Shown piece by piece: positions 939 to 20,776 of a stretch of DNA of 20,776 nt. The position numbers and the translations under genes are program-made. Numbering within the stretch: the first letter of the stretch is position 1; each line of letters opens with the position of its first letter. This stretch comes from Cyanophora paradoxa CCMP329. Lineage: Eukaryota; Plantae; Glaucophyta. The stretch is from assembly GCA_004431415.1 (NCBI GenBank), contig QPMI01000698.1, positions 1-20,776 on the forward strand. Direction: 5' to 3'. The notes beneath the pieces are model-generated. The model was not told the origin of the DNA, searched no databases, and worked only from the letters and a program-made list of their open reading frames with translations.

Positions 939-963
939 GTCGGGCGCGGCGATATCCTGCTTC

Positions 964-1884: not shown

Positions 1885-1907
1885 ATTTATTGGACACGAG
1901 AAAAAAT

Positions 1908-2744: not shown

Positions 2745-2760
2745 GTCAGACCAAGGCCTA

Positions 2761-2770
2761 GAAAATTTTC
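2761..2770. promoter_or_regulatory. Palindromic GAAAATTTTC, a bidirectional copy of the recurrent viral upstream motif
   Basis: Perfect palindrome between divergent HUH2 and VLTF3, 16 nt upstream of the HUH2 ATG. Confidence 0.55.
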
Positions 2771-2818
2771 CGAGGCTAGGGTGAGCTTCCACGTGGGGCC
2801 CCGGGGTACGTTCACACC

Positions 2819-2846
2819 TCACCTGAGCCTCACATGAATCACCTGA
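2819..2846 (+). promoter_or_regulatory. TCACCTGA motif cluster (3 copies, ~10-bp period)
   Basis: TCACCTGA 2819, TCACATGA 2830, TCACCTGA 2839. The same motif clusters at 14409-14457 and 14819-14849. Confidence 0.5.
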
Positions 2847-2964
2847 GCAACGCCTTCTGTCACATCTGCGGCCTCACCTGCGGCTGGGACCCACTCGATT
2901 GCGCGAAGCCCGTTTGCCACTTCTGCAAGGGAATAGCGCAGCTGCAGTACGAGGACTCGGAGGA

Positions 2965-3773
2965 ATGGCGGACTCTGGCGAAATCGATCTCCTGCTCCGA
3001 AACTTCGAGCAGATCCAGCGCTACGGCGCCATCCTTCACGACGAGGGGGACCCAGACTTCGACACTCCGGCACCGTACCCCGCCGCCGCCGCCGCCATCA
3101 CCAGTTCCTACCTCGGGGCCGGAGAGCGCCCCCGCAAGCGCAACCGCCGCACCCAAGGCCCCCAAGGCGAAGCCGCTGTCCCCTGCGGAAATTGCGGCTC
3201 TACCGCCCTCGTTGGTGTTCACCTGGATGGGGATCTGGTTTGCCAAGGTTGCGGTCTGGTCCTGGATCTTTATTATCCGGATCATCAACCCCTGGCTGTC
3301 AGCGAAATCCACAGCAACTACCTGCGGAAGTACCACGTATCTGAGCGACTTAAGCAGCACTGCCTGGAGGATTCTCCTGTACCCGAGGACGTGCTGGCAG
3401 CTATTGCGAGGCGCATGGCAATATCCGCCAAGTTCTCCGGGCTCTGAAGCAGCAGAAGTACATCGAGCGCTGGGCGCAGATCAAGTGGCGCATCACGGGC
3501 GAGCGCCCGCCTCCGATGAGCGCGGAGGATATGGACCGGGTGCAGGAGATGTTCGCCCTGGTGGAGGTCCCCTTCAGCATGTTCAAGTCGCAGGGCAGGA
3601 AGAACATGCTCAACTACAACTACGTTTTCAGACAGATTTTCGTGCTGCTAGATTTGCCCCAGCACCTCCCCTACTTTCCCTTGCTCAAGAGCAGGCAGAA
3701 ACTCTCGGAGTTAGATTCGATTTGGAACAGGATCTGCGAGTACAACGACTGGCATTTCTTTCCTACTCTTTAG
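2965..3773 (+). CDS. VLTF3: Viral late transcription factor 3 (poxvirus A2-like) with N-terminal TFIIB-type Zn ribbon; one frameshift near 3410-3420
   Basis: CGNCG..DGDLVCQGCGLVLD; YLRKYHVSERLKQ; IRQVLRALKQQKYIE; RKNMLNYNYVFRQIFVLLDLPQHLPYFPLLKSRQKLSELDSIWNRICEYNDWHFFPTL matches the VLTF3 C-terminal signature. Confidence 0.93.
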
Positions 3774-4118
3774 CTACTCTTTAGTGATCGCGGCGGCCTT
3801 CCGCTCGAGCGCCTGCTTGATTCCGAAGCTAGCGCTGGTAGCCTTGATTAGCATGTTCGTCTGCCCGTGTGTAAATCCGAGGATGAACATAATTCCGCCG
3901 GTGGGGTCGTCGTCGAAGAACTTGAGGGTGAGCACGTATTTCGAGAGCAGGCCGAGGGAGAGGCCGTTGACGGCGACTTGCGCGGCGAGCTCGGCCGCGT
4001 GGCCCGCCCTATTTTCGCCTTCGTGCGAGGAGAAGGCGGCGTCGATGAGGGAGCCGGATGCCAGGCCGAGGGCGTACTGCACGATAGCCTGGGAGAGCCC
4101 TAGGAGCACCTTTGACAT
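3774..4118 (-). CDS. Small hydrophobic protein, probably membrane (114 aa)
   Basis: Intact ORF with three hydrophobic segments; upstream AAAAATTTCCGAGG motif 15 nt before the ATG; abuts the VLTF3 stop. Confidence 0.7.
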   Translation of the reverse strand: MSKVLLGLSQAIVQYALGLASGSLIDAAFSSHEGENRAGHAAELAAQVAVNGLSLGLLSKYVLTLKFFDDDPTGGIMFILGFTHGQTNMLIKATSASFGIKQALERKAAAITKE

Positions 4119-4153
4119 TTTCCTGGGGCCTCGGAAATTTTTAAGGGGCGCGC

Positions 4154-4498
4154 CTAGGCGTCGGAGTCCTCGTCCTCAGTCTCTTCCTCTTCCGAGCTCG
4201 ATTCCGAGGTTGCAAAGTCGTCCGGGTCGCGCACGTAAATAACCCTGTCTCCCTCTTCGTCTGTCATCTCCTCCGAGCTGGAATCCTCGCTGCCCAGCGA
4301 CTCGGCCGCGGCCTCGTCCGCCGCCTCCGAGGTCAGGCGCTCCCAGTTAATTCCCAGCGCGTCGCAGACCCTCTCCAGGGCGCTGCTGACCTCGCCGTCG
4401 TTGAAGGGCGAGGAGGGGTCGAGGCTGGCCTCCAGGAGGCAGTCGTAGACGACGGACTCTACGCGGAAGACGGAGGCGATATGGGCGCTGGGCGACAT
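4154..4498 (-). CDS. Hypothetical acidic protein (114 aa)
   Basis: Intact ORF with D/E/S-rich tail; upstream ATTTTTTCTGAGG motif 19 nt before the ATG. Confidence 0.65.
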   Translation of the reverse strand: MSPSAHIASVFRVESVVYDCLLEASLDPSSPFNDGEVSSALERVCDALGINWERLTSEAADEAAAESLGSEDSSSEEMTDEEGDRVIYVRDPDDFATSESSSEEEETEDEDSDA

Positions 4499-4524
4499 GC
4501 TTACGCACGTGGCCTCAGAAAAAA

Positions 4525-5593
4525 TCAGGCGAGGCCGCGGTGCTTCCTGAAATTATCTATCATGCCGAGGAGCGTCTTGTCCACCGTGCCGTCGTCCGGA
4601 CCCACGAGATTTTCCCCGTTGACGGTTTCGCCCTCCCAGTACTCCTTGGATCCGATTCGGAACGGGGGCGGCTCCTCGGCCTTGTAGACGTAAAGGACGT
4701 CCAGAGGGTTCGTAGAGTTGTTGGAAGAATCGATGATAAGGCAGTGGTTATCCTGCGTGTACTTGTCGAGCAGGTAGTAGAAGGCGCGCTGGGATATGAT
4801 GTCGCCCCACTCCTTTGCGAGGGCCTCGCGCTGCATCGCCTGCGAGCACTTGAAAATGACAGCCAGATCAGTATTGGAGCGCAGGACGGGATTGATGCCC
4901 TTGGCATACTGCGTCGTGATAAGGGTCATGATTTTGTAGTGGCGCCCCGCCACGAACAGCTCGTTGAGCGCCTCGTCGTACCGCAGCCGCGCGTCGGAAA
5001 TCACGTCGTCGAGCAGCACGAAAAATCGCGGGTCGACGGGATCTTCCTTTCCCGCGAGCACGTCTTCCGACTTGTTGTGCTGCATGATCGCCTGCTGCCT
5101 TCTGAATAAATGGAAGAGCACGCCCGGGTTGTACTTGGGCCAGATGAAGCGCTGGGGGATGTACTGCTTCCAGTACCCGTTCAGGCGATCGGTCTGGCTG
5201 ATTACGATACCCCCCGGGAAGGTGCCCGAGAGGTTGAACATGAGATCGCGAAGGAAGAAGGACTTGCCCGTGCGCCGTTTGCCGACGCAGACGACCGTGG
5301 CGTCCGGCTTGACGGTGTTCACGTCGAACCACTTAAGTTCGGGCAGGCAGGCCATGCGCTCGATGCCGCCCGTCTTCGAGTTGTCGAGGAAGGCGTTGAC
5401 CTGCTCGGGCGTGAGCTGCATGCCGTCCTCTGTCATGCCCATGGCGCAGCTGGCGCCGGCGGCGGGGGCGGTGCCCGAGCCCGAGCCCGAGGCCTGGCCG
5501 GCGGGGCGGGGCCGCGGGCGCTGCGCCTGCGGGCTGGGCGGCCTGGGGCTTGGCCGCCTTCGGCTTCTTCGGCTTCTTGGGGTCCTTGGCCAT
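4525..5593 (-). CDS. A32: A32-like FtsK/HerA genome-packaging ATPase; frameshift in the low-complexity N-terminus
   Basis: Walker A VGKRRTGKS, Walker B FFVLLDDV, and GRHYKIMTLITTQY..PVLRSNTD typical of A32. Likely start MAKDPKKPKK at 5593. Confidence 0.95.
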
Positions 5594-5630
5594 TTTACCC
5601 CCTTCATTCAGATTTTCTTGTGACCTCGGA

Positions 5631-6106
5631 ATGAAGATTCTCGGCGTGGATGTGGGGTCATTAATTTCGCCTGGTGCCTCATCGAATTCGATCCGCAGAC
5701 AAAGGAATCCCAGATTCTCGACTGGCAAAAGATCGCCCTCTTCCCGTCTGCGCGCTGCTGTGGCCGCCTTGTGGCGCGCCTGGTTGAGGTTACTCGCGGC
5801 CATAGCGCCTTCGGCCTTCCCGACCAGATCGCGATCGAGGGCCAGAGGACGGGAATTAATCGCTGCATCGAGTGCACGCTCCACGCCCTCCTGTACGGGC
5901 GTGCGCGGATCGTGAGCCCGCGCGCCATCAAGCACTTCTTCAAGATCTCGAACCCGAGCTACAAGGAGCGCAAGCGCGGCGCCGTGGACAAGTGCCGCGA
6001 CCTTGTACCCGCCGAGCTTGCCGATATCGCGGATCGAAACGGCAAGCTTGACGACCTCTGCGACGCCTACTTAATCGCCCTCTACGCCGCCCTCAATCCG
6101 TTGTGA
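5631..6106 (+). CDS. RuvC-like Holliday junction resolvase (poxvirus A22-type); one frameshift in a G run near 5654-5657
   Basis: MKILGVDVG/VINFAWC..IAIEGQ..VSPRAIKHFF..RKRGAV..KLDDLCDAYL; RuvC-type acidic catalytic residues present. Confidence 0.88.
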
Positions 6107-6135
6107 TCCCATTGTGATTTCTGGAGGGCCCGCAG

Positions 6136-6297
6136 ATGGGATCGTCATGCCGTAAGCCGAGGCCCCTCTGCTGCGAAATCTGCCGCCTGCCCCAGACCAA
6201 GCGCGGCTGGGTGCTCAAGGCGGGCGTCTACGTCTGCTGCCCCCGGTGCGCCGTCCGCTACTACGCACTTTTTTCTGAAGGCTGTCTACACCCGTAG
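6136..6297 (+). CDS. Small Zn-finger protein (53 aa, absent from the ORF track)
   Basis: MGSSCRKPRPLCCEICRLPQTKRGWVLKAGVYVCCPRCAVRYYALFSEGCLHP*; two CxxC; GATTTCTGGAGG motif 14 nt upstream. Confidence 0.6.
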   Translation: MGSSCRKPRPLCCEICRLPQTKRGWVLKAGVYVCCPRCAVRYYALFSEGCLHP

Positions 6298-6306
6298 CTA
6301 GATCCC

Positions 6307-6699
6307 ATGGAGCACGCCCACTACTGCTTCAAGTGCCGCTCCAACACCAAGCTCGCCAACGTCGAGGTGCGTACCAGCAAGAACAACCGCCAGGTGGCCG
6401 TCGGCTCCTGCACGCAATGCAGCGGCCGCGTCTCGCGCTTCATGCGCCGGGTCCTCGAGGAGGGGGCCCGGGAGACCAGCCCCCCGCCGCAGCGCCCGCA
6501 GGTGGCCCACGCCACTGGCCCGGCCGCCGGCTCGAGCCAGGCACCGGCAGCCCCTACGGTCCCGAAGCCCCCCGCGGCGCCCCGGGCCAAGAAGACGGCG
6601 GCGCCGGCGGACGACTCGGCGCCCGCCGAGAGCCAAGTCCCGAAGCGCCATCGCGCGCCGAAGAAGTCGGCGAGCGAGCCTGCGATTCTTCAGCAGTGA
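6307..6699 (+). CDS. DUF5679-like Zn-ribbon protein with Pro/Ala/Lys-rich tail
   Basis: YCFKCR..TSKNNR....GSCTQCSGRVSRF fits the DUF5679 pattern as recalled. Confidence 0.75.
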   Translation: MEHAHYCFKCRSNTKLANVEVRTSKNNRQVAVGSCTQCSGRVSRFMRRVLEEGARETSPPPQRPQVAHATGPAAGSSQAPAAPTVPKPPAAPRAKKTAAPADDSAPAESQVPKRHRAPKKSASEPAILQQ

Positions 6700-6944
6700 T
6701 TCGGCGGCGCAACTGCCCAGTTCACTGCTTCGTCTGCGACTACCCCCCCACCTGCTTCCCGGGCCACCTGCAGTTCGGCCACGAGATCACGGTGGCGCGC
6801 GTGGGCGGGCGGGCCCGCCTCGTCTGCAGGCGCTGCGCGCGCGGCCTCTTCGCCGACTTTCGCAGGATCCGCGACAGGGAGCTCACGGGCAGTATTTCTA
6901 AGTCCCTCCCCAAATTAAGAAATGGCCTCCCTGCTGTTCGATAG
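6696..6944 (+). CDS. Small CxxC..CxxC protein; start uncertain (GTG overlapping the previous stop)
   Basis: HCFVCDY...LVCRRCARG; GTGA start/stop overlap; fills the intergenic gap. Confidence 0.45.
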   Translation: MIRRRNCPVHCFVCDYPPTCFPGHLQFGHEITVARVGGRARLVCRRCARGLFADFRRIRDRELTGSISKSLPKLRNGLPAVR

Positions 6945-7185
6945 GGATATGTACCAAATGCGCAACCATTTCGAGGGCATCTACCCGCCGCGCGTGCCGC
7001 AGGAGCAGTTTCCGCGCCCGCACTACACGGACCACCGCACGCACGGGCTGAGCAGGCCGGGGGCCGCCCAGCTGCTGCAGCACCACGGGGGCGCGGCGGC
7101 GGAGCGCGACTGGTCGCCCCTCTGGATTATAGCGGGGATCCTGGTGGGGTACCTCCTCTTCCGACCCAGTGTAATTTCTCAGTAG
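6922..7185 (+). CDS. Small protein with C-terminal transmembrane helix (87 aa)
   Basis: WSPLWIIAGILVGYLLFR; ATTTCTAAG motif 23 nt upstream. Confidence 0.7.
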   Translation: MASLLFDRDMYQMRNHFEGIYPPRVPQEQFPRPHYTDHRTHGLSRPGAAQLLQHHGGAAAERDWSPLWIIAGILVGYLLFRPSVISQ

Positions 7186-7199
7186 GGTGCTGTGCAACA

Positions 7200-7478
7200 A
7201 TGCCAGAGGCGCAGAAGAAGCCCGCGAAAAAGGCGCCCACGAACGGGCAGGAGAAGCCGACGAAGGCCGAGGTGAAGGAGGCGAAGGAGAAGCTGAAGGG
7301 CCCGCCCGAATTTCCTAAGGGGCCGAAGCCGCTGTACGAGGACGTCTCGCCCGGCGAAATATTCGTGGCGATGCGCCCGACGAAGCAGGGGAAGAAGGGC
7401 GGCGACAAGAAGGACGGGAAGGACGACAAGGCCAAGACCGATAAAATTTCAAAGCCCACCCCTAAGAAGAGCAAATGA
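7200..7478 (+). CDS. Lys-rich basic small protein, possible DNA-binding core protein (92 aa)
   Basis: Intact ORF, very K-rich; AATTTCTC motif 21 nt upstream. Confidence 0.65.
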   Translation: MPEAQKKPAKKAPTNGQEKPTKAEVKEAKEKLKGPPEFPKGPKPLYEDVSPGEIFVAMRPTKQGKKGGDKKDGKDDKAKTDKISKPTPKKSK

Positions 7479-9505
7479 GGGGGCTCGCCTCGCGTTTCGC
7501 GCCGCGCAACGTGCTCGCGATTCCGGGGGGCGGGGACTCGCACATCACGCCCTTCGAAAGCGATAAGTACGCCCACTTTCAGCAGATGGCGAAAACCGCA
7601 CTATTCAGGGGCCGCGAGGCCCGGGATCGTCCAGAGGGCCGAGACGAGATCGAAAACCTCGCGAAAATCGAGGCGCAGGCCATCGCCAACGCCTACTACA
7701 TTAACAAGTTCCAGCAGATGGAATCCTCGCTCGACCAAGAGTACGAGGAGGGTTTCCGCTCGTGGCTCATGGGCCAGTCGGCCTTCCATGGCCCGCAAAG
7801 GGCGGAAGGAGCAAGCGCCTGCAACGTTGACGGCGCGAACCTGACGATGCTACCAGGCGTGCGCGATTTCTGCAAGTCGAAGGAGGATCAGATCACTGAG
7901 TTCTTAAAGCGCAAGAAGCGGCTGGAGACCCTGGGTCCGATGAACCTCGAAGACGCGTACTACTATTACAAGTACATCATCAACGGCGAAGAGTTCAAGC
8001 CGACGAGCATCTACGCGCGCGAGCCGGAGGATCCCAGACGCAAGGATTACTCCGATCGGAACACACAGCAGCCGTTCACGCAGGCCGAGCCCCCCGGAGA
8101 GAACGACGAGGGGCCGGGCCCAGACGAGAGCCGCCAGCCGGACAAGCGTGCCAGCGCGCGCAGGATCGAGGCGAACCTTGCCAAGTTGGTCAAGATTATC
8201 CGCGAGCAGAAGGAGCAGGCCGCACGCATTCACACCGACGACAACGAAGCCGTGCGGGAGGATGCCGCCGAGGCGCTCGGAAACCTTCCCAAGAAGGCGG
8301 CGAAGGAGGCCCTGATCCAATCGGCCCTGCCGGGTAAGAAAAACCGCGGGGGTGGGGGGGGCGACGAGGGCGGCGAGGGGGGCGACGGGGGCGGTGCGCC
8401 GCCCCCTGGGGACGGGGCTGAGGACGCGGAGGGTGACGTCGAGATGGGCGAGCCCCCCACGGGATCCGGCGTAGAGGAAACCCCCAACCGCCCGCTGCGG
8501 CCCCGTAATCTAGAGGATCAGCTGAGAGGCGAGCCCGCCGCTGGCCCGAGCGGTGTGGCCGCCGAGCCCGAGGCCCCACCCCCCAGCGCCCCGGAGGCCA
8601 TCCAAGCGGCCGTGGGGGCTGCCGTTCAGACCGCGGTAGAGGCCGCCGTGCAGGCCGTGACCGGGGAGGAGACCACGGCCGAGGGAGCTCGGCGCATGCG
8701 CAGGGCCGTCCGCCCCGAAGACACGCGCAACCTCCTTAAAACGAGCGGCAAGCGCGAACCTGCTGAATTCCGAGACGAGGAACTTACAGAGCTTAAGAGG
8801 TCCAGGGCGGAATGGCTGAATGCGCTGGTGAATGGAAAACCCCCTCCCCTTGAAGGCCTTACCCTCACCGATTCCACCGGATACGAGTACTTAGACGTCG
8901 ACGGACTATCGCGGAACTTTGCCGGGTTCTTGATGGCACGTGGGCTTTACCCCACCAGACTTAGCGCAGCAGATCACCGCGCCGCCGTCCCGCAGCTGGC
9001 GAAAGTGTACCTTCAGGAAGTCAGTCGCCTTTTTAGCGGAAATCCCGAGATTACGTACAGCATCGGGGAGCAGCTCGTCGACATCCGAGATGAGCTGAAC
9101 GCAACCGCACAGTGGTTGTTCCGCAGCTACCGGAATCAGGAGAAAGAGAGGAAGATCTACGGCGGGTGGGTTGAGCCGTTATACCCGAGCGGCGAGGCAT
9201 CTGATCCCACAAAACGGTGGTCAGGGATCCCTATCCGGCCAGATGATTTCACAAGGGCCGAACCCGAGCCAACCCCTCGGTGGCTAACCGAGTTCCGGAA
9301 GCAGCAGTCTCTTCGTGAGGCCCGCGAAGCCCGGAATCGACGGTTGCGCCCCGAGGATGAACCTGCAGTGGAAGAGTTACGAGGCTTCGGTGCAGATTTC
9401 GGACCCCTCCTGCCAGCTCGGATGATGGATATCCCACCAATTCAATTCACGGATATGCCGCGGACGTGGTACAGGCCTTCGCAGGGGCCATCGGGCGCCG
9501 CCTGA
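7475..9505 (+). CDS. Large hypothetical viral protein (676 aa) with globular N-domain and disordered middle
   Basis: Uninterrupted 2-kb ORF immediately upstream of MCP; AAAATTTC motif 24 nt upstream. Confidence 0.8.
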   Translation: MRGLASRFAPRNVLAIPGGGDSHITPFESDKYAHFQQMAKTALFRGREARDRPEGRDEIENLAKIEAQAIANAYYINKFQQMESSLDQEYEEGFRSWLMGQSAFHGPQRAEGASACNVDGANLTMLPGVRDFCKSKEDQITEFLKRKKRLETLGPMNLEDAYYYYKYIINGEEFKPTSIYAREPEDPRRKDYSDRNTQQPFTQAEPPGENDEGPGPDESRQPDKRASARRIEANLAKLVKIIREQKEQAARIHTDDNEAVREDAAEALGNLPKKAAKEALIQSALPGKKNRGGGGGDEGGEGGDGGGAPPPGDGAEDAEGDVEMGEPPTGSGVEETPNRPLRPRNLEDQLRGEPAAGPSGVAAEPEAPPPSAPEAIQAAVGAAVQTAVEAAVQAVTGEETTAEGARRMRRAVRPEDTRNLLKTSGKREPAEFRDEELTELKRSRAEWLNALVNGKPPPLEGLTLTDSTGYEYLDVDGLSRNFAGFLMARGLYPTRLSAADHRAAVPQLAKVYLQEVSRLFSGNPEITYSIGEQLVDIRDELNATAQWLFRSYRNQEKERKIYGGWVEPLYPSGEASDPTKRWSGIPIRPDDFTRAEPEPTPRWLTEFRKQQSLREAREARNRRLRPEDEPAVEELRGFGADFGPLLPARMMDIPPIQFTDMPRTWYRPSQGPSGAA

Positions 9506-9532
9506 AAAATTTTCTCAACGCACCCCTAAACC

Positions 9533-11162
9533 ATGGCTTCCGCGCTCATCTCCACCCCCACGACCGCCCTCGCGCAGTCGCTCCTGAGCTCGAACTCGTC
9601 GGTGCATGTGCCCGACTCCTTCGACACGGCGACGCCGTTCGTGGACGAGGTGCTGGAGGTTAGCCCCGTGCAGGCCTCGCCCAATTTCGACACCGTCGTC
9701 GATTTCGTCGTGCCCCACTCCGGCCCGTTCATCTCCGACGTCTGGCTCCGGGCGACCCTGCCCGACCTTGCGGACGACACCAAATTTTACCTTCCCAAGG
9801 CCGGATTTATTTTGCTCAAGAAGGTCAAGGTGTTCGTGGGGACGCAGCTCGTGCACGAGTACGAGGGCGCCTACGATGCGATCTACGACGAGCTCGAGCA
9901 GGATCGCTCCCTCCCCACAACGCCAACCTCATCAACGAGTGCTGGGCGCCCCAGCTCCTGCAGCGCCGCTCCAACCACGGGGCCATGAGCCTCACCATCC
10001 CAAGGTGTTCGTGGGGACGCAGCTCGTGCACGAGTACGAGGGCGCCTACGATGCGATCTACGACGAGCTCGAGCAGGATCGCTCCCTCCCCACAACGCCA
10101 ACCTCATCAACGAGTGCTGGGCGCCCCAGCTCCTGCAGCGCCGCTCCAACCACGGGGCCATGAGCCTCACCATCCCACTGCGCATTCTCAACGGCTTCGG
10201 TCGCAAGAACGCCGTGCCCCTCTACAAGCTCCGTAGCACCGGCAACGACCTGAAGATTCAGATCACATTTGCGCGCCTCAACGAGCTCAACGTCACCTAC
10301 GCCTCGACGGCAAACCACACGGCCGGCACCAGCGCCGGCAACCTCGAAAGCGTCAAGCTCATGGTCCGCTACACGCACGTTTCCGCCTACGAGCTGAGCC
10401 TCCAGCCCAACAGCGTTACCTACCCCGGCAAGTTCATGCAGTCCTACGAGGTCGGCTTCAAGTCGGGCGCCGCGATTCGGCTGCCCTTCACCGGAGTTTG
10501 CTACGAGCTGGTGGTCGTTGTGCGCGATGCCACGCCGACGGCGGCGGCCAAGGAGTTCTGGAAGTTCCGGCCCCTCACGAAGATCGGCCTCAAGTGCGAT
10601 AATATTAAGGTGGTGGACGACTCCGTCCTGGACGCGAATTTCATCCGCACTGTCATTTGTTCGCGCGAGCACCGCAACGTGCCGACGCGCAAGTTCCTCG
10701 AGCTGCTGCAGGGCTTCGCGGCGTCCACCGACGCGGAGGCGCAAAACCTGATTACGGCGCCCGCCGCCGGGGATGTCGCCTACGACGCAAGGGAGCCGCG
10801 GCGCTCAAGGCCTCCAGACGGCGCTCCTTGCCAACCCCTGGTCGGGCAACGACACACCCGTCACGACCGTGGAGACGCAGGACAGGACCAACAGCGACAT
10901 TGTTCCCGCCTCGACCGCGACCGGCCAGTTCGGCGTCGAGTACATCTACTCGCTGCCCTTCGGCACCGAGGTCGGCGACGACACCAAGATGTTCGGCGGC
11001 CTGGACTTTGGCGCCTTCAAGACCGTCGAGCTCACCCTCACGACGGCCAAGACCGGCGCGGGCAACCCTCCCGCTGCCTTCGAGGGCCACGCCACCATCT
11101 ACTGCCGCTACTACAACGAGATCAGCTACGTGGGCGGCGGCGCCTACCGCCGTTTCCAGTAG
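9533..11162 (+). CDS. MCP: NCLDV-type double-jelly-roll major capsid protein; frameshifts near 9915 and 10790 plus an internal 175-bp duplication
   Basis: DFVVPHSGPFISDVWLRATLPDL; LLKKVKVFVGTQLVHEYEG; LTIPLRI..NAVPLYKL..DLKIQITF; YIYSLPF..GGLDFGAF; IYCRYYNEISYVGGGA. These motifs are colinear with NCLDV MCP. Confidence 0.9.
9826..10175 (+). repeat. Tandem duplication of 175 bp inside MCP
   Basis: 9826-10000 equals 10001-10175 (CAAGGTGTTCGTGGG...CTCACCATCC), with no differences seen by eye. Confidence 0.95.
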
Positions 11163-11234
11163 TCGCCTAGCCCCCTCCCCTGTACGCCGATTTGAACCAA
11201 TAAATTTTCCCATTGGGATCCTAACCGAGGCACG

Positions 11235-12350
11235 ATGACGAAGGCCACTCTATGATGGACATTGGGAGGGCTCTAAGAAGCAGCGCCAGTCGCTGAAGAA
11301 CGACCTGAAGGGCGAGGTGACGGGAATTATCGAGAAGTATGCACCCGGCACGATTCTGCCCGAGGTGCCAGTTCCAGCGGGCAAAGGCGATGTGTACACG
11401 CCGAGGACGTGGCCCGCGGCCTGGGCCAGAGCGGTACGGATACCAAGGCCCTGCCGGCCATGAAGTACACCCCGCAGATGGAGAAGCTGATGCGGATGGG
11501 CATCCGACAGCAGCTGCAGAATGCCTACCCCAACCGTCAGATCAACGAAGAGGACGTCGAGAATGCGTTCACGCTGCGGAAGGAAATCATGATTCGCGAT
11601 TTCGACCAGTGGGCGATGACGGCCTTCGACCTGAAGCAGCCAGGCGTGGCTAAAATGCTCGAGGAATATTACCCCGAGCTGCTCGAGCGAATTACGAATA
11701 TGATCGAGCAGGATATCGAAATTCAGCGTTTCGATAAGTACCAGAAGGTTTTCTTCCCGATGAACTACGACGATCTCGTCATGAAGTGGGCACGCGAGCG
11801 CGGCTGGATCAAGACAATGGAGGAAATCGAGAAGGAGAACCTGCTCGGCCCTGCAGGCCGGTACGCCAAGGAGACGGCCGGTGGGAGGGCCTCCGCGCCG
11901 GCTACACGCCCGACCTCTCGCCCATGTTCAACGCACAGACTGCGAACATTAGCAGCTCCGTCAACAGGCCCTACGGCCGCAACGACGTCGACTTCTCCAA
12001 GGGCAATCCGTTCGTGCCATTCTCATGGATCAGCACGGCACGCGAGGCCCCGCGGTTGCGACTGCGACCCCGTACGCGGACCAGAACATGCTACCTGCCA
12101 CGGTGAATCCCCGCCCGGGGCTAGATAGTTTAATCCCCGCCATTACGGCCAGTCAGCTTCAATCGACTCGTGGAAGGGGACGGTAGCCGGGATGACAGAG
12201 GCTGCTCAGAATCCAATTCAAGCTGCGTTCCAGGCCCTCGTCCTGGGCACCGAGACAGCACAGCAAAACATCCTCCGCGAAACCAATACCCGGAAGGCGG
12301 AGCATATACTGCCGCCGCAGCCGCCCTGCAGCCTGGTCGCTAATTTCTAA
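11235..12350 (+). CDS. Hypothetical viral protein downstream of MCP; several frameshifts, ends approximate
   Basis: ATG 11235 follows TAAATTTTCC; core ORF 11409-~11880 (IRDFDQWAMTAF..FFPMNYDDL); coding-like frames continue to TAA at 12350. Confidence 0.6.
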
Positions 12351-12365
12351 CGCACACGCAAGCAC

Positions 12366-12690
12366 ATGGCAGCGACGGAGGCGACGCTGGGCGAGCAGAT
12401 CGAGGCGCGCTGGGGCCGCTTCCTCGACCTGCTGGAGCCGAGGCCAAGGAGCCGGGGTGCGGGCGCAGATCCAGTCGCTGCGCGGTATAGGCGCCACGGC
12501 GGTCATCGTTCTATTTAGGAGGCACATCAACGCGGAGGCCGAATTCATTAAGGCACGGACGATCAAGTTTTCGCGAAGCTGCCGCAGGAGTACGCTCGGC
12601 CGTGCGCTCGCTCTTCTACGGGAGCGGCCCGAGCTGCGCGAGAAGCTGTGGCTTTACATCGAGCTCTTCGTCGAGCTGACCTCGGAGTAA
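12366..12690 (+). CDS. Hypothetical helical protein; frameshifted
   Basis: MAATEATLGEQIEARWGRFLDLL...LREKLWLYIELFVELTSE*; TAATTTCTAA motif 18 nt upstream. Confidence 0.65.
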
Positions 12691-12725
12691 AAATCCGAGG
12701 AAATTTCTAAGGGGCAAGCGTAACG

Positions 12726-13522
12726 ATGGACCCCTCTGCGATGCTGGGCTTCGACGCGCTGGCCGTGGACGGGCCGAACCCGTGGGGATCCCGCAGCCTC
12801 GGAAGAAGGCCGCCCCGCGAAGGAAGGCAAGGAAAAGGGCGAGAAGGCGCCGAAGGCCGACAAGACGGCGCTGCCGGGCGACGGGCCCACGGTGCCGCCG
12901 ACGCGCCGAGCAAGGGGCGAGCTTCAGCGTGCAGGAGCACATCGAAATGACGAAAAAGAAGGAACAGAGCGTGAAGAAGGCGCTGGGGATCGACCTGCAG
13001 GAGAAGCCGCGCGACGAGGCGCAGACGGACGTGGACGAGAAGAAGCAGGTTCTGCGTCAGATCGCGCAGTACAGGCGCTCGTTCGGGGCGAGCTAACGTC
13101 CACGAAAAAGCTGAGCCTCGCGACGCCGCTGGACGAGCTGAAGGAAGAGTACGAGGAAATTCAGCGCGAGCTGAGCACGCGGGGTTCGCTGGAGGCGGCG
13201 CGCCTCTTTCTGATCGCGGGCATGCACTCGCTGGAGCACCTTAACAAAGCGTACGATCCGATCGGCCTGAAGTTAGACGGGCTCGGCAGGCGACGCTCTC
13301 TTCCATGGACCAGGTGCAGCCGATCTTAGAGGAGCTGGTGATTAAGTACTCGCGCTACGTGACCCTGGGCCCGAGGCGCGCCTGGGGATGGCCCTTGTGC
13401 AGACGGTGCTGGCGGTGCACGCGGCCAACGCGAACCCGGAGATGATGAAGGAGGTGACGGAGGCGGCGGCCTCGACGGCGGCGGAGCCCAAAGCGGTGGG
13501 CGGCAAGTTCAACGGCCTTTGA
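12726..13522 (+). CDS. DUF5767-like conserved NCLDV protein; several frameshifts
   Basis: LDELKEEYEEI..LEHLNKAYDPIGLKLDGL..PILEELVIKY..LGPEARLGMALVQTVLAVHAAN resembles the recalled family pattern (EFLN..YDP...KLDGW..FEEL..KY..PE.RL...H..N). AAATTTCTAAGG motif 18 nt upstream. Confidence 0.7.
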
Positions 13523-13563
13523 TTGTAAACGCTTGTAATCAATTGCACCAGAGAATTTACAAT
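13522..13563. terminator. AT-rich imperfect hairpin between convergent genes
   Basis: ATTGTAAA (13522-13529) and TTTACAAT (13556-13563) fill the gap between the two stop codons. Confidence 0.35.
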
Positions 13564-14354
13564 TTATTCGTCTAAACTACTGCATGGGGTGGTGTACATA
13601 GACTCGGGGTTTAGGTAGGGCTCGAAATCGGCCTCGTTGTCGTAGGGCTTGAAGGCCAGCTCGGGCGTGCGGCCGGCGAAGCGAAAGGCGCCGACCTTGC
13701 ACTGCTGCACGGCGAGGAAGGACCACTTGAGGCCGAACTTGCCCTCGGGATGGCGTAGGCGGTGTCGATTTTAACGAGGGCCGCCACCAGGTCGCCGTGC
13801 CGATGGTGGCGCGCTCGGTGATGAGGTAGTTGGACATGTCGACGACGGGCACGGTCTTGCGCTTGCCGGCCATCGTCTGCGTGCGGATGCGCATGTTGAG
13901 GTACTTGTAGAAGGCCTGGCCCGACTCCTTGTCGACCTTGATGCGGACGCTGGGCGTCTGCAGCACCGAGATCTGATCCTTGGAGAGGCTGCGGCCGGGC
14001 GAGACTTGAGCTTGGCCTGGTTCTGCTGCACGAACTCGCAGAATTTCGCGTCCAGGGCCTCCAGCAGCTTGAGGAATTCGTCCGCGGCTGGTTCGTCTGG
14101 CCGTCGACGGCGCTGAGATCGGTGAGGTCCAGCGTGTAAAATCCGCCGTTTTCTTCCATGACGAAGGCCTTCTTCTCGTCGCTCCACGCCTTGCCTTGCT
14201 CGGTGTTGATGCAGGGGTTGATCGTGACCATGGGCGGCGCGTACATCATGAGGCCCTGCAGGCCGTCGTACTTGGCCTTGATGCGGCCGTTGGCATCGAT
14301 TTCGAAGGCGAGCTTGGCGGGGTCGATCTCGGTGGCGTTGCGGACGGTGGCCAT
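13564..14354 (-). CDS. OB-fold ssDNA-binding protein (T7 gp2.5/DUF2738-like NCLDV SSB); frameshifted
   Basis: MATVRNATEIDPAKLAF..FYTLDL..EFLKLLEALDAKFCEFV..HGDLVAALVKIDTAYAIP/EGKFGLKWSFLAVQ with an acidic/aromatic tail. Confidence 0.7.
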
Positions 14355-14408
14355 GTTGTCTGAGCTTAGTGTGCGATCAGCTAGCGCTAGAAAATATTTA
14401 AGGCCGCC

Positions 14409-14457
14409 CCACCTGACTTCAGGCTGACCTCGGTGAGCGCTCAGGTGATTCAGGTAA
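14409..14457. promoter_or_regulatory. TCAGGTGA/CACCTGA motif cluster upstream of SSB
   Basis: CCACCTGA 14409, TCAGGTGA 14441, TCAGGTAA 14450, plus degenerate copies. Confidence 0.5.
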
Positions 14458-14752
14458 AACACGTGTTCAATCGTCTCACTGGGGAGGGGAGAGCCTCAAT
14501 CACGGCTACGCGAATATTCGAGAGTCTAAATCTGGCGCTGGGGCTGGCGACGGCGTACAGGGTGATCTCGTTCTTGGCGGGATTGAGCATGATGTGCTGG
14601 AAGCAGTCGCCCTTGCGGCACTCCAGCGAGATGTTGCGCAGCAGCCTGCAGTAGTTGAAGCAGATCTCGCCGTTCTCGTCGAGATCCTCGTCCATGGCCT
14701 CGTACTCGAAGATGCCGAAGGTCAGGCAGCAGGTCTCGTACTTGGGGCGCAC
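14450..14752 (-). CDS. Hypothetical protein (~100 aa), start uncertain
   Basis: Coding-like codon usage, globular composition, lies between two motif clusters. Confidence 0.55.
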   Translation of the reverse strand: MRPKYETCCLTFGIFEYEAMDEDLDENGEICFNYCRLLRNISLECRKGDCFQHIMLNPAKNEITLYAVASPSARFRLSNIRVAVIEALPSPVRRLNTCFT

Positions 14753-14818
14753 ATTCTTGATTTCTCTTGGCTGTGAAGTGTGAGCGAGGGCGCGGCGCGG
14801 CTGCGGTTTTGAGGCCGT

Positions 14819-14849
14819 TCAGGTGAGGGTCAGGTGAGCGCTCACCTGA
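14819..14849. promoter_or_regulatory. TCAGGTGA cluster including the perfect 20-bp palindrome TCAGGTGAGCGCTCACCTGA
   Basis: Copies at 14819, 14830 and (inverted) 14842; abuts repeat copy A. Confidence 0.55.
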
Positions 14850-14850
14850 A

Positions 14851-16225
14851 GAGGGGGGAGAAGTGACGCGGACGCGAATACGTCATAGTCGAATACGTCA
14901 TAGTCCAAAACCTGGACTCGGGACTTGCCCAGGCCCCGCCGGTAAAAAAATAAGCTCGGACTGGCGCCATTTCTGAACCCCGGCTAGCTGCTTAATCCAG
15001 TACCATGGAGCCCGCCATCTCCCAGCTAGTCTCCAGGGCGCCAAGCTCGACAAGCCCTCAGTATCTACCTTCAGCTGATCGAGCTGGCCTGGCCGAGCCA
15101 ATGATAGCTCAGGCCTGCAAATCGCTCCACGTGGCGTTCGATGCGCCGTTCTCAGGTGACCCGACTCAGATGACATCCTGACCAAGGAGGAGATAAAAGC
15201 CGACTTCGAGGCGCTTTTCTCATTTATGAGCAAGAAGTATGCCGAAATCGAAGCAGCTAAAGCCGCAGCCGCAGCCGAAGACGAAGGCGCAGAAGGCACC
15301 GAAGCCTCAGCCGAAGGCCCTGCCGGCGACGAAGGCACCGAAGTTCAAGGCGCTGGCCCTCTGCAGAAGGCCAAGGCCAAGCCGACCTGCTTCCGCGTAG
15401 GCCCAAGGACATAGCCAAGGAGGCCAGCAGCCACAGGCCCGACTGGCCGCGCCGGCGCCCTACCGCTACCTCAAGCTGACAAGCGCAACGATACCGGCTT
15501 CACCAGGAGGAGGTGGCCTGAGCCCCTTCGGTGGCTGAAGCCAAGGGAGATCAAGTCTGGAGGCGTATCGAGCTAGCGCTAGCGCTAGGAGGAGGCGGTG
15601 CAGACTTAGAGGAGCAGGCGCTGCTAGATACCATCAACTTGGGCAGGGTAGAGCTAGCTAGCTAGCTGGTATCGATATCTAGCTAGCCTAGCGCTAGCCC
15701 AGTGCTTAATTAATTAACTGAAAGGTTGCGGAGGTTGCGGACGCGTCACAAATACGTCATAGTCGAATACGTCATAGTCCAAAACCTGGACTCGGGACTC
15801 GGCCCGGGCCCGCCGGTAAAAAAAGAGACTTGAACAAAAACACCGTACCCCGGTATTTAACTTGAAATCATCATGACATCATGTTCAAGTTGCTATGACA
15901 TTAACTACATTCAAAAGCAATGAATGCATAGATTATTATTATACTAAGTATTATTATTATTATAATAGGGGTACAGTATTATTATTTGAAACTTGGCGAG
16001 AGTCTGGGCCAGTCCCAAGTCCAGGTTTTGACTATGACGTATTCGACTATGACGTATCGGACGCGTCACTTCTCCCCTACTCAGCTGAACCAGCGGGGGT
16101 AGAGATGATGCGCCAATCCGAGTCTATTTTTTTACCGCAGGGCCCGGCCGAGTCCCGAGTCCAGGTTTTGGACTATGACGTATTCGACTATGACGTATTC
16201 GCGTCCGCGTCACTTCTCCCCCCTC
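14851..16225. repeat. Four-copy nested inverted repeat: A 14851-14990 (+), B 15738-15851 (+), C 15968-16077 (-), D 16082-16225 (-)
   Basis: 14851-14925 is the exact reverse complement of 16151-16225 (75 bp). Every copy has two GAATACGTCATAGTC units followed by a CAAAACCTGGACT(C/T)GGGACT-like block. Confidence 0.92.
15005..15414 (+). pseudogene. Degenerate or frameshifted ORF between repeat copies A and B
   Basis: ATG 15005; coding-like stretch DDILTKEEIKADFEALFSFMSKKYAEIEAAKAAAAAEDEG. Confidence 0.35.
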
Positions 16226-16278
16226 CTACGTTCGCAGCCGCCGGGCACCTCCACAATTTTCCGAGGTACCCAGCAAGC

Positions 16279-16563
16279 ATGGACTTACTGACTGCGCAGG
16301 TATCAAGCAGGAGCCCGAGGACCTTCTCTCCGCCGCCGCCGCCTCCGCCCCCAAGCAGCGCCGCCGCCGCGGCCCAAGTCCCTCAGCTCCGAGCCCGAAT
16401 CCTGGCGACGCCGGCCCGCGAGCCAGAGACCGTGGACTTGACCCTGGAGGAGCCCGCGCGCGGCCCGCCCCGCCTCCTGATCCTGGCCGCGGCGGCCGCG
16501 CGCTCTACTACGCGGCCGGCGCCTGGCCCGCAGCTCTCGGGCCTGGCCCGGAACCTTTTCTAA
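16279..16563 (+). CDS. Pro/Ala-rich hypothetical viral protein (94 aa)
   Basis: ATG lies 17 nt after AATTTTC(CGAGG), the same extended motif as at 2764 and upstream of 4118. Confidence 0.5.
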   Translation: MDLLTAQVSSRSPRTFSPPPPPPPPSSAAAAAQVPQLRARILATPAREPETVDLTLEEPARGPPRLLILAAAAARSTTRPAPGPQLSGLARNLF

Positions 16564-16572
16564 GTCTTGCCA

Positions 16573-16938
16573 ATGGAGGCCCTGCTAGATCTCATGGCCT
16601 TTGCGCTGCCCATCTTCTTCCTAGTGGCCTCAGCCGCATGGAGCGCGAGGCGCGCCAGCCCGAGCGCGTCGAGCGCGGCCTCACCCCCGAAGAGCAGCGC
16701 TACCCCGGCACTTTGGCTCACCCACGCATTGCGTCGAAATTTGAGTCATTTTCGACGCAGTGCTCCAATTTCACGCAATGCTGAAAATGCGTCGGGTTTC
16801 AAGCAGCGCTTAAACCCCACGCAGTGCGACGCAGCTGCCCGAAACTTCGAAGCACCGCGACTGCGCCAAATTCCCACTGCGTCTGGCTGCGTCGAGCGAT
16901 GCAGCCTGGCAGCGCTAGCAGGCGTATCCTATAGCTAG
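16573..16938 (+). CDS. Small protein with N-terminal hydrophobic helix; 3' part runs into a repeat cluster
   Basis: MEALLDLMAFALPIFFLVASAAW; TTTTCTAAG motif 12 nt upstream. Confidence 0.35.
   Translation: MEALLDLMAFALPIFFLVASAAWSARRASPSASSAASPPKSSATPALWLTHALRRNLSHFRRSAPISRNAENASGFKQRLNPTQCDAAARNFEAPRLRQIPTASGCVERCSLAALAGVSYS
16724..16894. repeat. Cluster of ACGCAnTGC/CTGCGTCG motifs in both orientations, with a hairpin
   Basis: About 9 copies; stem 16726-16739 pairs with 16750-16763 (one G-T). Confidence 0.65.
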
Positions 16939-19820
16939 TACTAGTAGCTCGTAACCCATGCGGATTGCGGATTCAATGATTGCAGCGCGCGCGCTCGGAT
17001 CACTGGGCAGATCCGAGGTGCGCGGGCGGATTGCAGCGCGCCGCGCGGCTGCTTACCAGTACCGCAGTACTAGTATATACGTATACGTACGTGCATGCTT
17101 AGTTTGCTCGCGCTTCTGGGCCGCTGGCCGCGGCCGGGCCACACGCGACAGGCCCGTGCCAGTATTGTGAATCCGTGGCATGCGCTGTCATAAAAAGATG
17201 ATGAACTGAAGTATACAGGCTGTCGGGATCCGAAATCTATCCCAGCACCAGCCCCTGAAGCCCGAATCCGAGCGCTAGTAGTTGCCGAGAAACGAAACTA
17301 ACTGCAATCAGCTTGTCCGAACAGCGGGTAGTGCTGCTGTCCTGCCTGCAGCATCGTCCGCCGGCGGCACAGGCAGAATGCGCCCTCGCCGCACTCGCTG
17401 CGGCAAGTCACCGCGCTCGCTGCGCTCAGAATAAGCGGACTCCTAGCTTAAAGAGAGAAGTGGGAAGCAAGGGACGTCTGCGCCACCGAGGAGAGGTAGC
17501 AGTCCCGTTCCTCCGCATCCAGCATCCCTTGCCCGTGCCCGACGCGAAGGCAGAGCGCTCGCTGCGCACGGAGAGGAATGTCAATCTAATGAAAAGAGAT
17601 GCGCGCGATTAACAGACCGCACCTGCGGCCGAGCGCCCACACCATGACTGGAAAGAGCGCTCCTCTGGCCAAAAGGCGAGGCGTTGATGGCGCTCGCCGC
17701 GCTGCGGCATCACGGTCAGCGCGCGGATCGAACGAAGATAAGCGAGTGGTGACCGGCAAACGGACCGCTGTGCACCACAGCAGGTGAGTGAGCAGCAGCC
17801 GGCTCGCGCCGCGTCCGGCCGTCCGGCATCCCTCGACCGCGATGCCGAAGCTGCGTTCGGAGCGTCAACCGAAAGAGAGAAGAATGCGCGCCGGCAAACG
17901 ACCGCACCTGCCGCACCTGCGCCCCAGCGCCGCAAGCACAAGAACTCCGAGGCCGCGGCCGTCCAGAGCCACGCGTCCGAGAACGGCACCCGCTCCGCTG
18001 CGCACGCGGCCGGCGTCACAAAAACATCAACGCGAGAGTAGCGGAAACAAGAGCGAGCACCTGGCCTGCGGGAGAAGACGCTAGGCGAACTGGATGGTGG
18101 TGCTCTGCTCGCGCGGGCCAGTCACCCCGTTCCCTGGACCGCCAGCGGAATGAGGGATTGGGGCAAAGGAGATGAAACGAAAAAGCACCTTGCTTCGCAT
18201 CGGCAGCCGCCTTCTCCTTTTTGCGCGAGCCGACCAAAAGAAGGAACACTTGGCGGCGGCGGCCGGGCTAAGAATGCAGATCAAGGGCGCTTGAAGAGGC
18301 AAGAACGACGCGTACACGAGCGCTCTTCGCCACGAGCGGGCGCCCGCCGCCCTGGGCAGCGCTCTGCTTTTGAAATCAGGCCGGCGACAGGCGGGGGACG
18401 CGAGAGGATGCAAGTAGGCACCTTCGAACGTCGTTCGCGCTCGAGGCTCGTCAAGTTCGCGGCAGCTGTGCGGACTCCGTTTGACCTGTTTGAAATTGTG
18501 GAGTAAGGGAGACCAGGATGCGCTGCGGTGGAGAGCCCAGCGCCGACGCACCGAGATTGCATTGCGTCCCGTGCTGGAGGCCGCAGCCAGTTCTTGCCCT
18601 GCGTGCTCTTCAAAGTGCAAGGCCGGAATTCGGGGTACACAGCTGTTGGGCGAAAGCGGCAGCGACACCAACAGCGATATCGATCGAGGATGCTTGAGAC
18701 GCCCTTCGGCTCAGCTTTCCGAGGAAGCCTGAGCGGTCCCATGCTCCTTCGCAGCTCGCTCGGCCGCGGTGCCGAGCACGTTGGCGGAAGCTCGCAGATG
18801 CGGCGCGCGGCCCTTTCGTTAGCTATAGCTAGGCGCATGTGGCCCGTGTTCTCGCAGCTGCATGTCTATGCCCTGGCGTGGCCGTGTTTCCGTGCGGCGC
18901 CGCGTTCACGGCCTGCCTTCCTCCCACAAACCGACGACGTGCGTCTATGCCGTGCCCTCCGCGTTCCACGCGTGACGTACAGCTCACTCGATTTCGCAGG
19001 GATCGCCGGCGGTGAGCCCCGTCGGCCCAGTTGGTTGGCCCTGCGCCCAAGCCGAGCCAAGGTGCGGCTACCGCCTGGACGGGTGCGGGATCAGACGGGC
19101 TGCATCCCGTTTCTCGCTGTTGATCTCTCCTTCGTAGCGGGCGATGGCGTGCCGGCAAGCTGCTGGCGGCGATCGCGCCCTGCCGAGCGCGTCGCCATCG
19201 CCGGGGGTGGGCCACCGGACCATAGCTTTGCGTCAGCGGCGCGCGAACGCATGTCTCACGATTCTTGCTTGCGTTCCAGGCGCTGGATCGCGCGCGCCGT
19301 CTCCAGGCTCCGAATTCTGGACCCCTCTTCCACAGCTTGGTGAGGCTCAGGCCTAGACGAGGTGAGTTGAGCGGTCTGTGTGCGTACGCGTCGCTGACAA
19401 GGCGCTCCTGTCGCGCAGGATGATCGAGTCCCGGGGCGATGGTCGGAGGGAGCGGAGGGCGGCAGCATGGATTGCACGGCGGGGCGTAGGATCGGCGGGC
19501 GGCGGCCCGGGGCGCACGCCTCGCGCGCCGCCGGCTGCCCGCCCGCCCCGGCCCGCCCCGGCGCCGTCGCTTCGCCCGCCCCGGCGCCTTCGCCCCGCTC
19601 CGCCCCGTCGCTTTCGCCCCGCCCCGCAGAGTCGGTGCGCCGTGCTGAGCGCCCTGCCCGGCACAGCCCGGCCTGCCTGCTGCTGACGCCCTCGCAGCTC
19701 TCGAGGATTTTGAATTTTCGGGCGTCCCGCTGCCGCGGGAGAGGATCTTCGAGCGCCCCGCCGCCCCCGCCGTCTCAGGGGACAGCGCCGGGGGTCGCGG
19801 AAGCTCAGCAGGCGGCGGCG

Positions 19821-20130
19821 CGGCTCACCTGGCGGGCGGAGGCGCGGCGGGCGGCGGCACGGCTCGCCGGGAGGGCGGCGGCGCGGCGGGCGGCGCGCAG
19901 CTCGCCGGGCGGGGCGAGGGTGCGGCGGGCGCGGCGAAGCTCGGCGGGCGGGGCGCGGGAGCGGCGGGGGCGGCGCGGCTCGCCAGGCGGGGCGGAGGCG
20001 CGGCGGGCGGCGCCGCGGCTCGCGGGCGGGGCGGAGGCGCAGCGTGCTGCGGCCGGCTCGCCGCACGGGGTGGAGGCGCGGCTGGCGGCGGCGAGGCTCG
20101 CCAGGGGGGGCGGAGGCGCAGCAGGCGGAC
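19821..20130 (+). repeat. GC-rich minisatellite, ~39-bp unit, about 8 degenerate copies
   Basis: Recurring CGGCTCGCCGGGCGGGGCGGAGGCGCGGCGGGCGGCG. Confidence 0.75.
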
Positions 20131-20243
20131 AGGACGGCAGGCGCGGCGGGCGCGGCGTGGCTCGGGGGCGCCGGTGGCGCGACGCGGCTTTCGATTCGTG
20201 ATCACTGATCATGAGCGTGATGATCTCTTGTCATTCAATTTAA

Positions 20244-20776
20244 ACAGATCCGAGGCTGCGCTGCCTGCAACTTGGCACAAATGAAGTGTTGGCAATTGGG
20301 GCCCACTATTGCTTGGCGAGGCCCAGCACCTTTTCAGCGCTTGCCACATTAAAATCAAATCTAGCGCCTTTGATATAGTCCAGGTACGCTTCTCCAGTCA
20401 GTGAAAAGGCCGGGATCTTTTCCTGGCTTCATGATCAATTCTCATGATCATCATGAACACTGCATGCATGGGTGCTCAGATCCTCACTGCGAGCCAAATT
20501 GAAACTCGGGGCCCATATTGCATACGCCCGCGAGCATGCTGTTGGGGGTTCTCGAGGGCGCTGGATTTGATTATGAAGTCGGTTGAAGACAGATCCGAGG
20601 CTGCGCTGCCCTGCAACTTGGCACAAATGAAGTGTTGGCAATTGGGGCCCACTATTGCTTGGCGAGGCACCAGCACCTTTTCAGCGCTTGCCACTATTAA
20701 AATCAAATCTAGCGCCTTTGATATAGTCCAGGTACGCTTCTCCAGTCAGTGAAAAGGCCGGGATCTTTTCCTGGCT
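20244..20776 (+). repeat. Direct repeat of at least 185 bp with ~345-bp period, continuing off the right edge
   Basis: 20244-20428 matches 20589-20776 apart from about three single-base indels. Confidence 0.9.

Follow-up and report, generated by a model that had tools for sequence, protein, structure and literature searches.

Mriyaviruses (Mriyaviricetes), with genomes of 35–45 kb, have been assigned a position close to the base of the giant-virus phylum; their replication by HUH nicking has been predicted from gene content alone. According to the available text of the paper that describes them, they lack a DNA polymerase, and initiation by HUH nicking has been proposed (PMC11253617); integration genes are likewise reported absent in the accessible part of a further report (10.64898/2026.06.19.733378). 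In other HUH-Rep systems, iterons together with a stem-loop constitute the standard origin (PMC12877143, available portion), and in rudiviruses the Rep protein nicks hairpin termini, with resolvase cutting of concatemers having been proposed (PMC5062984, available portion). The available text of PMC11253617 contains no origin, iteron or hairpin, the terms "inverted repeat" and "hairpin" giving 0 matches there, and no cis-acting origin or terminus of a mriyavirus was found described in the literature searched, which included few subscription papers. Mriyaviricetes-related regions have already been reported in a Glaucocystophyceae assembly (10.1101/2025.04.19.649669, available part), and these are very probably the same proviral family as the one analysed here. 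The main text of that report, in its available part, does not mention inverted repeats, termini or origins, and its figure or supplements could show the repeat. The provirus itself is already in print, while for the origin candidate presented below no described mriyavirus counterpart was found.

The window, meaning the whole 20,776-nt stretch of Cyanophora paradoxa DNA that was analysed, carries at positions 1–16704 a mriyavirus-type provirus that runs off the left end of the window and is cut on the right (Table 1). The Mriyaviricetes markers MCP, A32 ATPase, VLTF3 and RuvC are present together with an HUH protein showing motifs I–III, as are the Gamadviridae traits of two HUH domains and an ssb gene, which bears out the statement in an earlier note on this DNA that the provirus codes for HUH nickases and RuvC. 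Pfam also matched DUF5679, and the MCP matches are weak ones on a broken gene (E 2.6e-4 to 4.3e-4). Profiles built from related contigs matched the window for 11 of 27 families, with HUH twice and the ssb-like family included, and gave no match in the window, where the provirus is incomplete, for the remaining 16, including those labeled PDDEXK, minor capsid and VLTF2; family labels other than those of Pfam were inferred by comparison with the order and size of the genes in PMC11253617. Mriyaviruses typically also encode a helicase, and neither this gene nor VLTF2 or PDDEXK was seen in the window, a point against the origin reading given below. An ATPase tree (84 sequences, no outgroup, Yaraviridae absent) puts the family together with two metagenomic proteins on a long separate branch. 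Between 13800 and 16704, many frameshifts consist of one G or C letter missing from a run of that letter; contigs from three to four short-read runs have the letter, in several cases at full depth. Since the models of some siblings are also unbroken, assembly error is the likely cause of the breaks, and the provirus family may be largely intact. An exact 175-nt tandem duplication at 9826–10175, within the capsid gene, is either copy-specific or an assembly artefact.

Table 1 Features of the window, with positions, strands and supporting observations
Feature	Position	Strand	Remarks
Second HUH domain	200-934	-	relative-derived profile, E 3.9e-10
HUH endonuclease gene 1	1908-2650	-	motifs I-III visible; frameshifted
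VLTF3	2965-3773	+	PF04947, E 1.4e-23
A32 packaging ATPase	4525-5607	-	Pfam
RuvC / poxvirus A22-like Holliday junction resolvase	5631-6106	+	PF04848, E 2.2e-5
Double-jelly-roll-type major capsid protein (MCP)	9533-11162	+	PF16903, E 4.3e-4, below cut-off; gene broken in assembly
ssDNA-binding-protein-like (ssb-like) gene	13611-14354	-	relative-derived profile, E 3.8e-6; name inferred from family position in relatives
Left-hand divergent ORF	14450-14755	-	no family found
TCACCTGA/TCAGGTGA motif cluster	14819-14849	.	abuts arm A
Arm A	14851-14985	+	G-run, two tandem units (14876-14905), inner extension
Enclosed gene	15005 to ~15660	+	~215 aa in siblings; sibling protein maps to 15005-15656 across three frames in window assembly (frameshifted)
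Arm B	15737-15851	+	two tandem units (15751-15779), inner stem
AT-rich core	15852-15966	.	three small stem-loops at tip of predicted B/C hairpin
Arm C	15967-16077	-	inner stem, two tandem units, degenerate outer end
Degenerate stretch	16046-16150	.	direct copy of D outer end (71%), then inverted copy of A extension (73.5%)
Arm D	16092-16225	-	16151-16225 is a perfect inverted copy of 14851-14925
Right-hand ORF1	16279-16563	+	96 aa in siblings; viral upstream motif at 16257
Right-hand ORF2	16573-16704	+	161-190 aa in sibling models; cut at ~codon 44

Near the right end of the provirus lies an inverted repeat that the earlier note had described as a nested set of four arms around an AT-rich core, with a perfect 75-bp outer repeat, eight 15-bp units and no target-site duplication. 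The outer repeat of arms A and D is indeed perfect over 75 nt, with no extension outward, whereas the longest perfect inverted repeat in dinucleotide-shuffled windows (n = 20) reached 14–24 nt. The tandem units form four pairs, one per arm, and a 12-nt core occurs at 8 places, a 14-mer at 7 and the exact 15-mer at 6, such that the count of eight holds for the core and not for the full unit. The nested order is present in the assembled copy, and it is only there that four-arm nesting is certain, the C–D part being degenerate. No target-site duplication was found at the A/D ends, in agreement with the earlier description, and an Rfam search of 14300–20776 gave no match. Taken as a whole, that first reading was partly supported and had overlooked three things: the enclosed gene, the existence of another type of unit and the fact that the fourth arm is degenerate.

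A fundamental question is whether this structure belongs to the virus or arrived from the host. The best matches of the ATPase are eukaryotic gene models, comprising an 18-member cluster and 7 singles among the 120 matches listed; the 21 named models that were read all come from Cyanophora paradoxa, in which near-identical proteins are encoded by gene models in multiple copies, and the window's own model may be a further, unnamed member. Right-hand ORF2 is represented by 32 models in 8 clusters. On all five contigs that name both, the ATPase model and the models of the enclosed or right-hand genes lie 11–13 numbers apart, another such pair identified by accession only is 14 apart, and one enclosed-gene accession lies 37 numbers from an ATPase accession without a contig shown. 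Models of the enclosed or right-hand genes occur on 18 named contigs, of which 13 have no ATPase among the members listed, and the synteny thus rests on a minority. Since the enclosed and right-hand genes hold their distance from the ATPase, we read the repeat as virus-intrinsic and not as a dispersed host MITE. Two metagenomic ATPases, P0002 and P0007, are 79–89% identical to that of the provirus, and close relatives therefore exist outside the host assembly.

Short-read contigs, which derive from one organism, connect arm A to the enclosed gene (14903–15054), the enclosed gene to arm B (15601–15747), arm B to the core (15785–15928) and arm D to ORF1 (16194–16286). Depth inside the repeat unit compared with the ssb-like gene is 4305 versus 4014 in run X1 and 1917 versus 1967 in run X9, rough values that provide no copy number. 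Across B–core–C the depth is lower than for the ssb-like gene, a difference that may stem from repeat collapse, from bias in the library or from the presence of a second type of unit. Insertion of a dispersed host MITE into a single provirus copy would agree with a 705-nt X9 contig that matches 15704–15759 only, but it is very improbable given that the interior is a gene found in the same order in sibling proviruses, that the ends lack a target-site duplication and that contig depth inside the unit is near that of the ssb-like gene. The earlier note had named an empty site in siblings or a dispersed MITE family as refutations, and there is no sign of either, the siblings keeping the order of the enclosed and right-hand genes. 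The circular permutation among siblings that it had envisaged was not seen, since the five contigs with both markers named (5/5) are colinear.

The gene between arms A and B is unbroken in sibling models P0139–P0142 (189–221 aa), is preceded by the viral upstream motif, and has metagenomic homologs that match parts of its product at 44–70%. The N-terminal domain of the protein is predicted to be all-helical (model pLDDT 78). No fold match to the model was found in PDB or BFVD, no Pfam family or Atlas match was found for the gene, and neither the enclosed-gene alignment nor the ssb N-terminus, each searched against viral loci, yielded a related locus. Both of the gene models that fuse the enclosed gene to a neighbor (2/2) join right-hand ORF1, and none joins the left-hand ORF.

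A second tandem unit, TTTTCCGTCATGGG, in which the CGTCAT core is kept, was observed at arm B in runs X1, X9 and X13 and at arm D in X1 and X9 (loose contig ends). Because the unit type has changed at both arms, a common binding site is suggested by these sequences. However, recombinational homogenisation of the arms would also alter both together without protein binding, which counts against an origin reading. Arms A and D are identical, yet the C–D stretch matches at only 71–74%, while the divergence between long contigs and the window amounts to a few per cent. The degenerate stretch resembles the right ends of both possible orientations of the A–D segment in series. Given this degeneracy, the fourth arm is fairly likely to be copy-specific or of assembly origin, as a mosaic. 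Distinct inner-arm contigs number three among those listed, and the family form probably has three arms, namely A, B and one opposite arm. The C–D spacer at 16076–16139 is without a contig in X1 or X9, a coverage gap that proves nothing by itself. Flip-flop isomers of the core, another suggestion of the earlier note, did not emerge beyond two weak hints.

Does a comparable element occur in relatives of the provirus? A total of 199 related loci were fetched, and the 173 of at least 4 kb were scanned with 13-mers for inverted repeats. Ten of the 173 loci contain them, corresponding to 7 distinct contigs, one of which is low-complexity, in a set of partial and redundant loci. The sequence of the window's repeat has no resemblance in the first 161 related loci, and the exact tandem unit had 0 matches in viral contigs and 0 in metagenome contigs. 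In L065 and L067, an ORF and an AT-rich stretch are enclosed by 44-nt arms that the two loci share, the whole positioned between divergent genes, with the G-run in the opposite orientation to that of the window; a search with the L067 arm pattern matched only these two loci. Locus L176 has 166-nt arms with a 138-nt AT-rich spacer, and L188 has three 29-nt units with an inverted copy 1.5 kb off. These repeats lend modest support to a recurring kind of cis element but do not prove homology. Against assigning an origin to the window's repeat, the repeats of relatives are rare, stand at differing places and are unlike it in sequence. As separate observations, the L065 and L067 structures (431–1624 and 271–1244, respectively) lie on free gamadvirus-like contigs that are sisters in the ATPase tree, with enclosed ORFs of 151–192 aa that are mutually unrelated, and long AT-centred palindromes, some duplicated, occur in other gamadvirus-like contigs (L073 4518–4721 and 11989–12199; L185 9219–9499; L188 19434–19811).

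One hypothesis is that a small inverted-repeat element or an invertible one-gene cassette was captured by an ancestor of the virus and has been copied along since. Such a capture would agree with the sharp, perfect ends around one gene, with the like units in L065 and L067, whose two ORFs are related neither to one another nor to that of the window (no similarity of the enclosed gene to them was found), and with the stretch at 16046–16150, which reads as two right ends in succession, first that of the standard form and then that of an inverted one. However, no target-site duplication and no transposase or recombinase is seen in the window, the enclosed gene has the viral upstream motif as well as metagenomic homologs, and the fused gene models (2/2) extend across the right-hand boundary and none across the left. 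We regard this hypothesis as quite improbable.

The position of the repeat, internal to the provirus and with genes diverging on either side, is as the earlier note had it, including the viral upstream motif ahead of 16279. Clusters of the motif TCACCTGA, likely an early promoter element, precede the left-hand, ssb-like and HUH genes, and the upstream motif TTTTCCGAGG / TTTCT(G/A)A, which precedes most viral genes (2766, 4137, 16257 and others), is likely a late promoter element. TGACG is a bZIP half-site, and 12 of its 40 sites in the window lie in the arms, three per arm. The arms could then be a transcription-control hub, in which tandem CRE-like sites for host factors act on the divergent promoters and take no part in replication; besides the share of TGACG sites in the arms, the location at the divergence point and the retention of the core in both unit types would fit. 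We consider this unlikely by a good measure: window-wide, TGACG is not enriched (40 observed versus 37.8 expected), the flanking genes have upstream motifs of their own, and neither a perfect 75-nt inverted repeat nor an AT-rich hairpin is needed for promoters.

To the right of the repeat, the match of ORF2 to its siblings ends at 16700–16704. Contigs of X1 and X9 carry other letters past 16704 that read as the next ORF2 residues of the siblings, and this continuation was not found elsewhere in the window. For this reason, the family must extend to the right of the repeat, and the window copy there meets other DNA, at a junction 480 nt from arm D and inside ORF2. Integration of a circle at a random point, a later deletion and an insertion all fit this junction. 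The provirus likely joined host DNA at points outside the repeat, as the window copy did at 16704, and an integration point away from the repeat, as the earlier note had proposed, agrees with this junction falling inside a gene. Beyond it, 16712–17399 corresponds to one unbranched 702-nt contig in three DNA runs and is likely a host repeat; the host side also includes a GC-rich 39-nt tandem array of 8.8 copies (19786–20128) and a direct repeat with a period of ~346 nt (20244–20776).

The core at 15852–15961 has a GC content of 24.5%. The predicted fold of 15737–16075 is one long hairpin of ~340 nt with three small lobes at its tip and an energy of −85.4 kcal/mol, versus −32.5 ± 3.2 kcal/mol in 100 shuffles; the resulting z of −16 is mostly a restatement of the inverted repeat itself, and the stability of the core by itself is not unusual relative to shuffles (z −1.4). 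Over 110 nt, the similarity between arms B and C is only ~70%. A single 319-nt contig from run X9 covers B-inner, core and C-inner. In the commoner core variant, as seen in short-read contigs, 15929–15961 is swapped for 84 other letters. A low-depth opposite-strand joint at 15851/15903 inside the core occurs in 2 of 4 runs with a short side of just 29–31 nt, and amounts to a hint only. A nonanucleotide-like match in the core, obtained with a 7-nt part of the nick-site motif, was rejected, as the matches sit in an ATT microsatellite, a part of the core that the commoner variant has exchanged for other sequence.

How would a virus of this kind begin its replication? A virus that lacks a polymerase and encodes HUH, ssb and resolvase proteins needs a nicking origin. 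Here, the AT-rich core lies where two transcription directions diverge and has on either side arms that carry the tandem units in pairs. The layout of an HUH-Rep origin, in which a genome that encodes Rep has a stem-loop bordered by tandem units in its non-coding DNA, is present. In the proposed sequence of events, the initiator would be a viral HUH protein, perhaps together with a host factor reading TGACG half-sites, and would bind to the tandem units; melting of the AT-rich core would follow, and arms B and C could extrude as a stem-loop; HUH would nick at the stem-loop and provide a 3'-OH for the host polymerase; rolling-circle or strand-displacement synthesis would proceed from the nick; and RuvC would resolve the junctions of the replication products. 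On the basis of the DNA sequence, the repeat is real, virus-intrinsic and a good candidate for an origin. It is a fixed, gene-containing part of the integrated mriyavirus-type virus, and we hypothesize that it is also the HUH-Rep replication origin of that virus, a reading to which we give an even chance.

An alternative hypothesis starts from a linear genome that, as in rudiviruses, ends in hairpins or inverted terminal repeats: B–core–C would be its terminus, either joined or opened, a circularised or concatemeric form of the genome would have integrated elsewhere, and the terminus would double as origin. The 340-nt hairpin with its lobed AT-rich tip, the encoded RuvC, the length variants of the core, the opposite-strand joint described above and the mid-gene end of the window copy all point in this direction. 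From the literature, in the available text of PMC11253617, come the closeness of the mriyavirus HUH to ORF119 of the rudivirus SIRV1 and one genome with inverted terminal repeats (ITR) among 60 mriyavirus representatives. However, a head-to-head palindrome is not what is found, since the genes on the two sides are unlike and B and C only ~70% alike, although a head-to-tail joint of two unlike ends would be compatible with this; the sibling contigs show no permutation (5/5), and the opposite-strand joint has its very short side. In addition, complete mriyaviruses in print are for the most part circular or carry direct repeats: 7 of 60 representatives are DTR genomes (PMC11253617, available text), and in another report 6 of 7 are circular (PMC13768754, available text). 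These genomes are Yaraviridae-like, and all 7 DTR rows in the available part of PMC11253617 are without HUH_long, so the two-HUH group may differ in topology. We regard joined termini as possible but rather doubtful. A broader proposal, which we hold to be unlikely, would make the repeat the origin-terminus of a mriyavirus: a hairpin telomere junction nicked by HUH and resolved by RuvC, lying inside an invertible gene cassette, in an integrase-less and largely intact glaucophyte provirus family that would have spread to some 25–30 loci by its own HUH and split into two origin-specificity types. If true, this origin-terminus would be the first visible for a mriyavirus. Returning to the HUH-Rep origin as the preferred assignment, the candidate comes with the HUH proteins cognate to it and with two unit types that occur naturally, and it is present in many copies in an alga kept in culture, which would make the replication mode and integrase-free spread directly testable.

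Comparison with known systems places the provirus closest to Gamadviridae, a proposed family that includes the Pleurochrysis endemic viruses and NDDV/Phaglo-G (available portions of PMC11253617 and 10.1101/2022.07.28.501842). Both have MCP, A32, VLTF3, RuvC, an ssb-like gene and two HUH domains in common, and gamadviruses are likewise endogenous in algae; the provirus ATPase is ~50% identical to the cluster that contains that of PEV2, whereas the provirus differs by its own long ATPase branch, its gene order and its glaucophyte host. The rudivirus SIRV also combines an HUH protein of the same structural type (per the available text of PMC11253617), a resolvase and an AT-rich hairpin in inverted repeats (PMC5062984, available portion). 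In contrast to the SIRV termini, the structure in the provirus, as known from integrated DNA alone, is internal and has different genes on its two sides. Relative to the HUH-Rep origins of geminiviruses and nanoviruses, the provirus is dsDNA of tens of kb, with arms of 75–135 nt, a stem-loop of ~340 nt, a gene inside the outer repeat and no identified nonanucleotide. In those origins, according to the available portion of PMC12877143, short tandem units likewise flank a stem-loop between divergent genes, and the unit type varies among related genomes, as it does here.
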